DNA of 64,000 bases from IMG/VR virus record IMGVR_UViG_3300037463_000039, positions 6,562-70,561 of that record; one strand, given 5' to 3'. A model generated the notes under the pieces. The model had not been told where the DNA came from, searched no databases, and saw only the letters and a program-made list of their open reading frames with translations. The stretch is from a virus. Shown here in pieces: positions 5,367 through 59,043 of this stretch (positions are counted from its first letter, which is position 1; each line of letters starts with the position of its first letter). The position numbers were made by a program, and so were the translations under genes.

Positions 5367-5680
5367 GTGTCCGCGGCCTCAGTTACCTGCTCGGCGCTCC
5401 GCAGCAGGGGGATCGTTCCCTTCGGGATCGCGGGGGGTGTACGCACCGGAGACGGACACAAAAGGAGGGGTAGTGCCCTTAGCGGGCCAGCCTCCGAGCC
5501 GGACACGTCAGTACCTGCGTCCACTACCAGGGAACGCGAAAAATTCAACGCCGCCCCTCCGTCGCCCCTTTCCGCTTGCCTGCTTCTGAGGTAGTGTAAG
5601 ACGTGTGATCTCCTAACCTCTCTCCTGATATGGAGAAGGCCCGCCCCTAAATCTAACTGGGGGCGGGCCTTTTTCTTTTT
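5367..5680 (+). ncRNA. Candidate structured ncRNA, copy A
   Basis: Flanked by a promoter and a terminator; stems GTGTCCG/CGGACAC and GGAGGGG/CCCCTCC; shares ordered blocks with 58918-59043. Confidence 0.55.
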
Positions 5681-5858
5681 CTGTTTGTTCTGTTTGTGCG
5701 GCGGTGTTCGGTCCCTGGATGGATACATCGGAATACGGTACAGAGCACACCCAGTACATCGGCAGGCCCTGGAACCGCTTGGTTCCTCGGTGCGGCTTGT
5801 GCCAGGTCGTCAGGCCGTAGTACATCCCGTGCGGCATCGCCAGCGTGTTCGCCATCAT
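5613..5858 (-). CDS. Hypothetical protein
   Basis: ATGA overlap with the upstream gene, but it runs through the terminator hairpin. Confidence 0.35.
   Translation of the reverse strand: MMANTLAMPHGMYYGLTTWHKPHRGTKRFQGLPMYWVCSVPYSDVSIQGPNTAAQTEQTEKEKGPPPVRFRGGPSPYQERG
5637..5680 (+). terminator. Intrinsic terminator
   Basis: AGGCCCGCCCC...GGGGCGGGCCT followed by TTTTCTTTTT. Confidence 0.85.
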
Positions 5859-6091
5859 TCCTCACGCCCTTTCTCGCCCCGCGACCGCGCACCGTACGAG
5901 CGGGGACTCCACGCCAGCACGCTGGACCGGAGCAGGACCGTCTTGCCCAGCACCTCTTCGGTCGCGATCTCGCCCCGGTTCACGGCGTTATAGATGGTGG
6001 CGAGGACGACGTCGTGATGCGCCGCCGCCTCCCGGTGCGTCATGTAGGCGTTCAACGGTGCGCCGCCGTCCCCACTCCTGGTTTTCGTCAT
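5855..6091 (-). CDS. Excisionase-like HTH (HTH_17/MerR-type) protein
   Basis: YMTHREAAAHHDVVLATIYNAVNRGEI pattern. Confidence 0.7.
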   Translation of the reverse strand: MTKTRSGDGGAPLNAYMTHREAAAHHDVVLATIYNAVNRGEIATEEVLGKTVLLRSSVLAWSPRSYGARSRGEKGREE

Positions 6092-6715
6092 TTATTCGCC
6101 GCCAACGCCGCGAACGGCCCCTGGAACACTCAGCAGGTCCGCCGAGTCGGGGTAGCGCCCGTACGCCTGCTGCAACGCCCGATCATAGCCGCCCGTGTCG
6201 AAACTCGCGTCCGACGCCTGGGCACGGATCGCCGCGTTCAGCGCCGCCGCCATGACCGGCTCCAGAGAGACGACCGAAAGAAGTTTGATGATCCCGGTCG
6301 CGGCATCAACCAGCGTGATGCTCAGCAGGGGGCGCTCCGGCGCGGTAGGCTCCGGGTTCGGCAGGCTCCGCTCGGCCTCCGGCAGCAGCCACCACGAAAA
6401 GGGAGCGTCGCCCCACGGAATAGCGTCACCGGGGCGCTTGTCCCCCTGGCGGCGACCGAACCGGTACAAAAAGAAGATGATAGGACCGACCACCGCGACC
6501 GCGAACTCTTTCCGACCGGTCCGCACCCCCTCGACCTCCTCCGGCGTGGGGCGGTCCAGAAACATCACCAATTCGTGCCCGCCGCCTCGATACAGGTAGG
6601 CAACACGCTCCTGCCAACGCGTGATGCCGGGATTATAGAGTGCCCCGACTTTGTATTCGTGCAGGTGGGGCGGCTGCCCCGATCCGCCTAGTAGGGCGTC
6701 GATATCGTTATCCAC
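6092..6715 (-). CDS. Hypothetical protein
   Basis: Tightly packed ORF in leftward operon with protein-like composition. Confidence 0.7.
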   Translation of the reverse strand: MDNDIDALLGGSGQPPHLHEYKVGALYNPGITRWQERVAYLYRGGGHELVMFLDRPTPEEVEGVRTGRKEFAVAVVGPIIFFLYRFGRRQGDKRPGDAIPWGDAPFSWWLLPEAERSLPNPEPTAPERPLLSITLVDAATGIIKLLSVVSLEPVMAAALNAAIRAQASDASFDTGGYDRALQQAYGRYPDSADLLSVPGAVRGVGGE

Positions 6716-7000
6716 TCAGTCCTCCTCGTAGACAAGGCCATAGATGACGTCCAGGTAGTCCTCCGCTGCCGTCTCCGCCCGGCGCAGCCGCTCCAGCGCG
6801 TCGGGAGCGTCAGTGCCGATGCCGAAAAACGCGCAGTCGCGGATGAACGTCCGGATCTCCCGCAGCGACGTGACGGCGTAGGCGGCGGCGTCGCCGAGCA
6901 GCTCGTCCATTGCGACGGCTGTCACGATGTCGGCCTCCACCGGCGTGCCGTCGTCCGGCGGCTCGTCGGGGAGGATGTCGGGGTAGCGGCGCGGCTTCAT
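6716..7000 (-). CDS. Hypothetical acidic protein
   Basis: ATG 7000 overlaps the ibrB stop (ATGA). Confidence 0.6.
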   Translation of the reverse strand: MKPRRYPDILPDEPPDDGTPVEADIVTAVAMDELLGDAAAYAVTSLREIRTFIRDCAFFGIGTDAPDALERLRRAETAAEDYLDVIYGLVYEED

Positions 7001-57227: not shown

Positions 57228-57608
57228 ATGCCCACTCTCACAGACGCCGCCCCGTACTACACGGGCGAGGCCCTCGAATTCGAGGCGCACCCCTCCTTCT
57301 GCCGCGACACCGAGACCATCGCGCAGGCCGCCGGCAAGGTCAAGCCGAACACGGTGCTCGGCAAGATCACCGCGTCGGGCAAGTACGTCCCGCTCGCGCC
57401 GGGCGCGTCCGACGGCTCCGAGAACGCCGCGCGCGTCCTGATCGACGGCGTGGACGCCACTGCGGGCGACACCAAGGCGGCCGTCTGGGCGCGCACGGTC
57501 GTCCTGAACCAGGGCGAACTCAACTGGGGGGCCGCCAACGCCGGCCAGATCACCGCCGCCATCGCGGCCCTCAAGCTGCTCGGCATCGTCGTCCGCCCGA
57601 CCCTGTAG
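57228..57608 (+). CDS. Head decoration protein (lambda gpD-like)
   Basis: GTVLGKITASGKYVPL..GASDGSE.A..VL...VDAT motif. Confidence 0.85.
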   Translation: MPTLTDAAPYYTGEALEFEAHPSFCRDTETIAQAAGKVKPNTVLGKITASGKYVPLAPGASDGSENAARVLIDGVDATAGDTKAAVWARTVVLNQGELNWGAANAGQITAAIAALKLLGIVVRPTL

Positions 57609-57800
57609 ACCCTGTAATCCTCCCCGGCGACTGCCGTCACACCCCTCCACCCTCCTCCGCCGACATATGGCCCGGGTCCCGTCGGCGGGGGATGAAACCT
57701 CAGACCCTTTTGCTGCGTTGCCGCGATGCAGCAATGACATGCCTCAGCGGCGCCCCTCTACTCCCCTCAGACCTCACAGACATCCAAGGACCCCACAGCC

Positions 57801-58823
57801 ATGCTGACGCTGGACATTTTCAAGAACGACGCCTTCTCCATGATGTCGCTCACCACGCGCATCAACGAGTTCCCCTATGTGCCGGGCCAGATCGGCCGCC
57901 AGGGCATCCACGACGAGGAGAGCGTGTCCACCACGGTCGTCGCCGTCGAGAACAACAAGGGCAAGCTCGTCCTGGTCCCCAACACCCCGCGCTCCGCCGC
58001 GGCCAACCGCCGCACGCGCGACACCCGTTCGCTGCGGTACTTCTCCGTGCCGCACCTGCCGCTGGAATCGGTCGTGACCGCCGAGGAGATCCAGAACGTC
58101 CGCCCGCTGCCGGGCCAGGGCGAACTGGAGGTCGCGCAGTCGAAGATCGACACCAAGATGAAGGGGGACCTTGCCAGCCTCGACGCCACCGTCGAGTACG
58201 GCCGCGCCGGCTCCGTCAAGGGCATCATCTATGACGCCGACGGCTCCACCGTGCTTTACAACCTGTACACCGAGTTCAACGTCGCGCAGCAGACCACGGA
58301 CTACGTGCTGGGCACGGCCGGCACGGTCATCATCGGCAAGAGCAACGAGGTGAAGAACAAGATCGAGGACGCGCTGGAGGACGCCGTTTACACCAAGGTG
58401 GTGGCGATCTGCGGCAAGACGTTCTTCGACCGGCTCATCACGCAGCCGACGGTGCGGGACGCCTACCTGCACTTCGAGGCGGTGAACCAGGCGACCAACC
58501 CGAACCGCGACGACCTGCGCTACATCGGCTTCGAGCACGGCGGCATCACCTACGTCCAGTACCGGGGCAAAGTGGGCGGTGTGTCGTTCGTGGCCGACAA
58601 CGAGGCGCACGCCTACCCCGTGGGCGTCCCGGAGCTGTTCAAGACCTTCTTCGCCCCGGCCAACTACATGGAGACGGTGAACACGCCGGGGATGCCGCGC
58701 TACGCCAAGATGGGACAGGACCCGAGCGGCTACAACAAGTACCTGCCGTTCGAGACGCAGGCCAACCCGCTGTCGATCTGCACCCGCCCGGGCGCGCTGA
58801 TCAAGCTGACCACCAGCAACTAA
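57801..58823 (+). CDS. Major capsid protein (lambda gpE-like family)
   Basis: LDIFKNDAFS..SLT..IN..P; PHLPLE..V.AEEIQ.VR; FAPANY.ETVNT.G.P.YAK; QANPL..CTRP..LIK. Confidence 0.92.
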   Translation: MLTLDIFKNDAFSMMSLTTRINEFPYVPGQIGRQGIHDEESVSTTVVAVENNKGKLVLVPNTPRSAAANRRTRDTRSLRYFSVPHLPLESVVTAEEIQNVRPLPGQGELEVAQSKIDTKMKGDLASLDATVEYGRAGSVKGIIYDADGSTVLYNLYTEFNVAQQTTDYVLGTAGTVIIGKSNEVKNKIEDALEDAVYTKVVAICGKTFFDRLITQPTVRDAYLHFEAVNQATNPNRDDLRYIGFEHGGITYVQYRGKVGGVSFVADNEAHAYPVGVPELFKTFFAPANYMETVNTPGMPRYAKMGQDPSGYNKYLPFETQANPLSICTRPGALIKLTTSN

Positions 58824-58917
58824 GCGCGCGCGTCGCCGCCGCCGGAGTGCCCCCCTCCCTACCCAAAGTGGATAGGGGAGGGGGTGTGCCTACAAAATTC
58901 GCCGAGTACCGCCCATA

Positions 58918-59043
58918 GGTGGAGACCTCGCAAGAGGGTGCCGGGCAGCCTGCATTCCGCGCGCGAACGCGGAAGGGCCTCAGAGCCGGAAACGTCAGTA
59001 CCGCGAGGGAACGCGAAAAGATCATGGCCGCAGGCCATCCACC
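58918..59043 (+). ncRNA. Candidate structured ncRNA, copy B (may extend 58824-59108)
   Basis: Closed by GGTGGA/TCCACC; GNRA hairpins; shares ordered blocks with copy A. Confidence 0.55.

Follow-up and report, generated by a model that had tools for sequence, protein, structure and literature searches.

We analysed a window of 64,000 nucleotides (nt) from IMG/VR virus record IMGVR_UViG_3300037463_000039 (positions 6562-70561 of the 70,729 bases of the whole record), in which a reading made without database searches, the sequence-only reading, had pointed to two paralogous intergenic elements after the endolysin gene and the major capsid gene, proposed to be structured RNAs of a phage family built on a module like that of helix 23 of 23S ribosomal RNA (rRNA). 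These two look-alikes, here called copies A and B (Table 1), proved to be real. Copy A lies 3' of an Amidase_3 endolysin gene (4721-5281), and copy B lies 3' of a lambda-E-type major capsid gene (57801-58823), itself preceded by a head-decoration gene. The 20-mer GAGCCGGAnACGTCAGTACC has its sole matches at 5496-5515 and 58983-59002, and just two places, 5505-5542 and 58992-59019, fit the composite pattern ACGTCAGTACC-N(3-30)-GGGAACGCGAAAA, which none of 100 shuffles reproduced. An additional common block upstream of both copies, CTACAA(AA)TTCG, is found at 5354-5363 and 58890-58901 and nowhere else in the window. Exactly two copies were found by pattern search in the entire 70.7-kb virus record, and a covariance model run on the record with its filters off gave no third one.

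Both stretches are non-coding by composition, as their GC content at third codon positions (GC3) is 0.64-0.70 compared to 0.88-0.96 in the adjacent genes. The spacer between the two common blocks measures 14 nt in copy A and 4 nt in copy B. The lengths differ by 10 nt, which is no whole number of codons, so a reading frame is not preserved, and the difference fits an RNA hairpin: the spacer of copy A lengthens the stem (UG/CA), while that of copy B is a GNRA loop (GCGA). When the two copies were aligned, perfect blocks of 20 nt and 13 nt were found to stand beside dissimilar regions. An identical 204-nt contig, corresponding to 58942-59145 and joining copy B to the next gene, was present in an independent soil metagenome, which indicates that copy B is not an assembly artefact; this soil copy was the only addition obtained from the contigs of four DNA sequencing runs. 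Two details of the sequence-only reading did not survive. Its common block GGGC(C)AGCCT is probably misaligned on the copy B side, and the long-range stems proposed to close each core are insignificant when taken alone (P = 0.15 for copy A and P = 0.32 for copy B).

Homologs of these elements were identified in the genomes of Armatimonadota with covariance models: R1, made from the two phage copies alone; R2, based on host sequences; and R3, a family model that includes copy B. The search of Armatimonadota with a model of both copies, which the sequence-only reading had suggested, did find host loci, as two complete genomes each yielded a single R1 match, full-length and at a non-rRNA locus (36.6 and 34.6 bits). 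The family was then found in 14 of 71 genomes (16 loci) of the Armatimonadota class to which genome G121 belongs and in 6 of the 151 genomes of a phylum-wide Armatimonadota sample, while the covariance model search found no member in two other phyla, represented by 101 and 151 genomes. The host genes are about 120 nt in size and are stand-alone chromosomal loci, typically present in a single copy; genomes G103 and G346 have two copies each. Contrary to what had been proposed, the family is therefore not phage-specific, since its typical members are chromosomal genes of Armatimonadota. A BLAST search of copy B against 401 Armatimonadota genomes gave short matches only, and those covering both blocks fell in coding genes such as rpsK; the top match, in genome G296, is a true family member according to the covariance model. 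The nearest relatives of the capsid protein bear the names of Armatimonadota metagenome-assembled genomes (MAGs).

The phage and host copies share the same order of parts: GUGGAGAC, a first hairpin (CUCC-GCAA-GGAG, CUUC-GCCA-GAAG or CCUC-GCAA-GAGG), CGGGCAGCC, a hairpin UUCC...GGAA, (A/G)GCCU..GAGCCGGAAA, a third hairpin, and AAAAA.AUCAU..CCGCC. Nearly all of the 17 host loci inspected possess an extended -10 element (TGnTAnAAT) about 6 nt before the conserved 5' end UGCCCA, and most of them have an intrinsic terminator at most about 20 nt after the closing stem. In genome G121, transcription from a promoter reading TTGAAC-N17-TGTGGTATAAT would start near UGCCCA, the closing stem is followed by a strong intrinsic terminator, and the downstream open reading frames (ORFs) are convergent, as at phage copy A. 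The leuS gene is located 230-1200 nt downstream, on the same strand, in 8 of the 17 host loci, and the other 9 have no leuS nearby.

The fold of the family consists of five helices: a closing stem (P1), three hairpins (P2, P3 and P4), and an inner helix (P3'). It is supported by covariation in an alignment of 18 sequences (A9). Over the 28 pairs of the five helices, 91.8% of the cells are paired, compared to 39-49% when the partners are slid. Both sides have changed in 19 of the 28 pairs, where shuffled alignments have a mean of 7.9 and none of 500 reaches 19, and in P3 and P4 no pair lacks a compensatory change. Direct inspection of phage and host sequences also shows such changes in P1, P2, P3, and at the base of P4, and a MAFFT alignment displays them plainly in P1-P4. 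No clear extra tertiary pairs were revealed by covariation. Three unpaired junctions are nearly invariant, namely CGGGCAG, GAGCCGG and CCGCCAGGC (CCGCC(A)GGC). Among the host variants, locus L199 (G130) does not have P3, loci L200 (G103) and L215 (G366) do not have P4, and locus L201 (G036) carries a long insertion in P4. Since natural variants are missing P3 or P4, the hairpin arms seem dispensable while the junction core is constant.

No previously described family accounts for this RNA. At gathering thresholds, Rfam 15 detects no family in the phage window; at E <= 10, it gives nothing meaningful on copies A or B, with sub-threshold matches only on the copy A terminator. Likewise, no Rfam family, T-box included, covers the element at E <= 1 in two host loci (L195 and L196), and an open-access literature search retrieved no description of such an RNA. 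The proposal that the copies are structured RNAs of a single family new to Rfam thus stands, with a fold backed by covariation. Two known RNAs were considered as candidates and rejected. The signal recognition particle (SRP) RNA was excluded, as it is present at other loci of the same four genomes. Rfam finds no 6S RNA in these genomes, yet the fold of the element is branched and not rod-like.

Copy B is a full-length member of this family. Its score was 43.8 bits under the host-only model R2 and 75.6 bits (E about 1e-15), over the full length, under R3, a model that includes copy B itself; its identity to the host members is 54-69%. Every helix of the family is present in copy B with compensatory changes: P1 at 58918-58923/59038-59043, P2 at 58926-58937 (CCUC-GCAA-GAGG), P3 at 58955-58974, P3' as GGCCU 58976-58980/AGGCC 59032-59036, and P4 (Table 1). 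The 5' motif of the family is retained as GCCCA at 58911-58915, and the junctions read GUGCCGGGCAGCCUGCA after P2, CAGAGCCGGAAA before P4, and AAAAGAUCAUGGCCGC after P4. This copy is flanked by the capsid gene on one side and by the late genes, which begin at 59109, on the other. The terminator scan identified no plus-strand terminator after it, and a hairpin within it partly overlaps the ribosome-binding site of the next gene.

Copy A has diverged strongly from its paralogue and retains the 3' two-thirds of the RNA: GGAGAC (5448-5453), the junction GCCUCCGAGCCGGA (GAGCCGGA), the P4 hairpin, AAAAAUUCA, and GCCGC. It does not possess P2, the CGGGCAG junction, or P3, and its closing stem has two options, CGGAG 5447-5451/CUCCG 5557-5561 or GGAGGGG 5464-5470/CCCCUCC 5554-5560. 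Its 80-nt 5' leader has no counterpart in copy B or in the host members. Under R1, copy A scored 111 bits, a value that is high by construction because this model was made from the two phage copies; under R3, it scored only 9.6 bits (E 0.024 in 401 nt) and was not recovered as a full-length member. As the sequence-only reading had proposed, copy A has its own extended -10 promoter and terminator, the latter detected by the terminator scan and the former by direct reading; a promoter scan that requires a -35 element lists nothing at copy A. The element TGCTACAAT is the same nonamer as in the promoter of host locus L209 and is of the TGnTAnAAT type found in the hosts. With this element just upstream and a terminator downstream, copy A is organised as a stand-alone unit, as are the host genes.

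It should be noted that the long ORF after copy A on the plus strand (5696-6691) is a shadow ORF, with a GC3 of 0.66 and an Arg-rich product. The real genes 3' of copy A are on the minus strand, at 5855-6091 (a small HTH_17 protein, excisionase/MerR-like) and 6092-6715. Copy A thus occupies a convergent gap of 573 bp, where it cannot serve as the leader of a downstream gene. A CU-rich hairpin, CCUAACCUCUCUCC, is located ahead of the copy A terminator, and the region 5604-5676 matches, weakly and below the threshold, an Rfam "toxic sRNA" (small RNA) with anti-Shine-Dalgarno motifs (23.4 bits for a cut-off of 50).

Other viruses carrying the RNA were searched for in several ways. A pattern derived from the family revealed it in two IMG/VR records of 195 kb (CheckV completeness of 66%) and 253 kb, where its sequence is the same (68.7 bits). 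This jumbo-phage-like genome is AT-rich, its RNA has its own promoter and terminator, and the next genes encode two HNH endonucleases. A second family-based pattern gave 39 IMG/VR loci, among which only the already known jumbo phage was real. Strict two-block patterns had no match in metagenome or genome contigs and a single match, at the end of a coding gene and judged to be due to chance, in viral contigs. Looser patterns gave 14, 77, and 50 matches, none of them with the upstream context, and those inspected were in coding or promoter regions. A BLAST search against GenBank phages returned chance matches only. Finally, the element is absent 3' of the capsid gene in eight related loci, whose capsid proteins are 43-67% identical.

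Table 1 Positions of the RNA copies and their associated elements (window coordinates, except for the jumbo-phage copies)
Feature	Position	Strand	Description	Basis
Extended -10 promoter-like element of copy A	5352-5360	+	TGCTACAAT	Direct reading; host upstream regions
5' leader specific to copy A	5367-5444	+	GUGUCCG 5367-5373 able to pair with CGGACAC 5448-5454	Direct reading
Copy A	about 5445-5562	+	Strongly diverged paralogue	Alignments; covariance models
P4 hairpin of copy A	5505-5538	+	CGU 5506-5508/GCG 5536-5538, AGUA 5510-5513 opposite GAA 5532-5534, CC/GG, UG/CA, 10-nt loop	Pattern, alignment, direct reading
Intrinsic terminator of the copy A unit	5632-5680	+	18-pair stem (5632-5675) and T-run	Terminator scan
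Promoter-like block of copy B	58887-58901	+	TGCCTACAAAATTCG, looks like a degenerate family promoter with wrong TG spacing	Comparison with host promoters
Copy B	58911-59045	+	Full-length family member	R3, alignment A9, covariation
P4 hairpin of copy B	58993-59015	+	CGU/GCG base, AGUA 58997-59000 opposite GAA 59009-59011, CC/GG, GCGA tetraloop; 23S helix-23-like	Local alignment
Jumbo-phage copy, 195-kb IMG/VR record	L228 1067-1190			
Jumbo-phage copy, 253-kb IMG/VR record	L244 4709-4832			

The P4 arm differs between the phage copies and the host members. In both A and B, AGUA stands opposite GAA, with CC/GG pairs above and, below, a C-C mismatch followed by U-G, G-C, and C-G pairs. This agrees with the bulged-G motif (loop E, sarcin-ricin type) at the level of sequence, and the P4 arm of the phage copies is a candidate for the S-turn-type geometry. 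It should be noted that RNAalifold proposed an alternative register of this module with G-C and U-A pairs. None of the host members has the AGUA/GAA hairpin; their P4 may be a simple GNRA hairpin of 5 bp, may be expanded, or may be missing.

The copy B hairpin resembles 23S rRNA significantly. The segment of 23S domain I that the sequence-only reading had quoted was correct when compared to E. coli 23S 455-482, which reads CAGTACCGTGAGGGAAAGGCGAAAAGA, and the match to helix 23 is close: 58996-59021 of copy B agrees with this segment at 24 of 27 positions, with a score of 37 compared to 20.9 +/- 2.7 (maximum 34) for 300 shuffles, and 16 nt of copy B, CAGUACCGCGAGGGAA (CAGTACCGCGAGGGAA), are identical in two Armatimonadota 23S sequences (L042 and L043). 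The GCGA tetraloop in copy B is followed by GCGAAAAGA. A second match of copy B, in collinear order, is to E. coli 23S 248-279, further upstream, where helix 13 has its 3' side and the next strand begins. The chain of the two segments scored 73, compared to 40.2 +/- 3.1 (maximum 49) for shuffles (z 9.6), and the z values against Armatimonadota 23S were 5.2 and 6.8. Extending the likeness into the flanks by multi-segment chaining did no better than shuffles. The comparisons of copy A, three host members, and the jumbo-phage copy with 23S rRNA were all insignificant (z -1.8 to 1.6). Moreover, the Rfam model LSU_rRNA_bacteria had no match at E <= 10 on A or B, while it aligns a true 23S domain I at 320 bits, and the 23S partners of the strands retained in copy B (AGCC 265-268 with 424-427 and GAGCC 271-275 with 362-366 in the Rfam consensus) are absent in B.

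In three Armatimonadota 23S sequences (L041 from G024, L042 from G108, and L043 from G368), the tetraloop of helix 23 is GCGA and not GUGA, and one of the three reads GGGAACGGUGAAAAG, which is nearer to the phage hairpin than E. coli 23S is. A 23S fragment from an Armatimonadota MAG (L021; G101, contig 44) looks proteobacterial in the region of helices 13-16 and may represent bin contamination.

As the S-turn hairpin is missing in the hosts and the 23S likeness is confined to copy B, the rRNA-like module is a lineage-specific elaboration of a variable arm and not the conserved core; the view that this module is the essence of the family was therefore abandoned, as it is absent from all host members and significant only in copy B. 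Judged from the sequences compared, the RNA family does not descend from 23S rRNA, and its ribosome-like features would stem from a remodelling of the arms in the phage lineage, either through convergence or through recombination over a small patch. An origin of copy B as a 23S domain I with an internal deletion between CAGU repeats was considered and dropped, since the host members have no 23S likeness.

With moderate confidence, we favour the reading that copies A and B are phage-borne genes of a previously undescribed family of structured small RNAs of about 120 nt, each acting as a stable, trans-acting RNA that binds a host factor. The RNA would function in trans as a stable folded molecule, whose invariant junction nucleotides might bind a conserved host factor or form a pocket for a ligand or protein; a role as a base-pairing regulator appears improbable. 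The phage would have acquired the gene from the host lineage and would make its own version of the RNA during infection, thereby occupying or redirecting the host factor. In the phage versions, the dispensable P4 arm would have been replaced by a longer AGUA/GAA hairpin under a GNRA or extended loop, and this new hairpin may add a second docking surface that resembles 23S helix 23.

Several points weigh against this reading. The function of the RNA is wholly inferred, and the direction of transfer, from host to phage, was assumed from numbers and synteny (8 of 17 loci by leuS) and not from a rooted tree. The covariation alignment was fitted to the model, which favours structure. Copy A is not recognised by the family model and is tied to the family solely through its resemblance to copy B. 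A cis-acting role would be compatible with the 8 of 17 host loci at which leuS follows in the same orientation. Lastly, relatives with 56-67% identical capsids do not have the element after the capsid gene, so carriage is sporadic and could be neutral.

The leuS neighbourhood raises the question of a cis-acting leader, similar to a riboswitch or an attenuator, that gates the terminator and hence leuS in many hosts and, in copy B, the late genes. The succession of a promoter, a structured element, and an intrinsic terminator is indeed the classic layout of an attenuator; the 3' strand of P1 in G121 (GUUUCU) could pair, by direct reading, with the 5' strand of its terminator (AGGAAC), and the hairpin of copy B partly covers the ribosome-binding site of the next gene. 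However, this possible antiterminator pairing is not kept in G112, the distance to leuS varies between 230 and 1200 nt where this gene is present, and no Rfam family, T-box included, was detected over the element in L195 and L196. Since leuS is absent at 9 of the 17 loci and the downstream genes are convergent both in G121 and at copy A, a general cis-acting role is unlikely. A different proposal, based on the mimic or decoy for ribosomal proteins or rRNA-targeting nucleases that the sequence-only reading had put forward as possible, is that the phage RNAs imitate 23S domain I (helix 13 and helices 23/24) and soak up a ribosomal protein, an assembly factor, or a defence nuclease. We regard this as quite unlikely, and no result obtained here favours the decoy. 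In its favour, copy B follows two parts of E. coli 23S (248-279 and 455-482) in collinear order, has matches in Armatimonadota 23S, and has a hairpin at the position of helix 24; helices 22-24 line the exit tunnel beside uL22, uL23, and uL24 (bioRxiv 10.1101/722611). Nevertheless, the hosts, the jumbo-phage member, and copy A have no significant 23S likeness, so that the resemblance is no conserved property of the family; copy B is unlikely to be a faithful mimic in three dimensions when it is missing the 23S pairing partners, there is no local match to the Rfam LSU model, and AGUA/GAA with two G-C pairs and a GNRA loop is a small recurrent motif for which convergence is possible.

It is very unlikely, in our view, that there is no working RNA at all and that the two copies are either decaying remnants of host DNA (of a small-RNA gene or of a deleted 23S fragment) or DNA sites, such as a recombination boundary, a protein-binding site, or an attP-type duplicate. 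In favour of this view, copy A has decayed far from the family model, the element is missing in related phages, the two direct repeats flank the connector, tail, and lysis block, and the CAGU found at E. coli 23S 281-284 and 455-458 could explain a deletion junction. Yet the perfect 20-nt and 13-nt blocks beside dissimilar regions are not the mark of uniform decay, the differences between the copies are hairpin insertions on the plus strand with GNRA loops, and copy B retains every family helix with compensatory changes. The host members rule out an origin by deletion from 23S, and the integrase is about 38 kb away from copy A. No attB-like match to the copy A region was found in the 401 Armatimonadota genomes, only short T-rich matches, and an attP function was rejected. 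It is also highly improbable that the RNA is a chimeric adaptor, derived from a regulatory or structural small RNA of the host, in which the host core was kept and a helix 13-like P3 and a helix 23-like P4 with an S-turn were grafted on the dispensable arms, so that the partner bound by the core would be connected to a protein of the ribosome tunnel, to an assembly factor, or to an enzyme directed at rRNA; if true, such an adaptor RNA would rewire translation or ribosome biogenesis late in infection.

The favoured reading, a host-derived RNA acting in trans, has parallels in known systems. Large phages carry stable RNAs of their hosts, such as transfer RNAs (tRNAs) and transfer-messenger RNAs (tmRNAs). 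Likewise, a host-type RNA gene with a promoter and a terminator is found here in a temperate-looking 70-kb phage and in an unrelated jumbo phage, but this RNA belongs to none of the tRNA, tmRNA, SRP, 6S, and RNase P types, and the 70-kb phage encodes it twice, as copies that have diverged from each other and of which one is within the late operon. The family also shares with the orphan motifs classified as "Gene; sRNA" in Rfam (raiA and the phylum-named "-1" motifs) a multi-helix covarying fold, invariant junctions, GNRA loops, and a narrow taxonomic range; it differs from them in having no Rfam 15 match and in including phage members with a remodelled arm. With 23S helix 23 (E. coli 455-476, a bulged-G/S-turn under a GNRA loop), the phage P4 has in common AGUA opposite GAA and two C-G pairs, but the phage hairpin belongs to a small RNA, as a variable arm at its periphery, and the context strands and partners of 23S are missing there.

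An RNA family absent from Rfam 15 has thus been found in a poorly studied phylum, Armatimonadota, and is carried by two unrelated phages. It provides a sequence-level link between an uncultured phage and its likely host class. It would also offer a rare view of the changes that a phage makes to an acquired host RNA, with the core kept and a variable arm swapped for a hairpin resembling 23S helix 23. Four of the host genomes that carry it are apparently complete assemblies, which makes the RNA a tractable target if cultures exist.

Additional features of the window were observed. A perfect 14-bp hairpin without a U-tract (5306-5337, within 5283-5337) is found immediately after the stop codon of the gene upstream of copy A, and a strong hairpin, also lacking a U-tract (CCCCCCUCCCUA...UAGGGGAGGGGG; 58851-58885), is located right after the stop codon of the gene upstream of copy B; these two hairpins may be U-less terminators or stabilisers of the 3' ends of the endolysin and capsid messages. 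Just 5' of the packaging and head genes, a phage sigma-70-family protein (regions 2 and 4) is encoded at 47032-47856 on the plus strand and is possibly a late sigma factor. Finally, within the region 41906-44556, about 1.5 kb with few ORFs lie ahead of the tyrosine integrase gene (43447-44556) and are likely the attP region.

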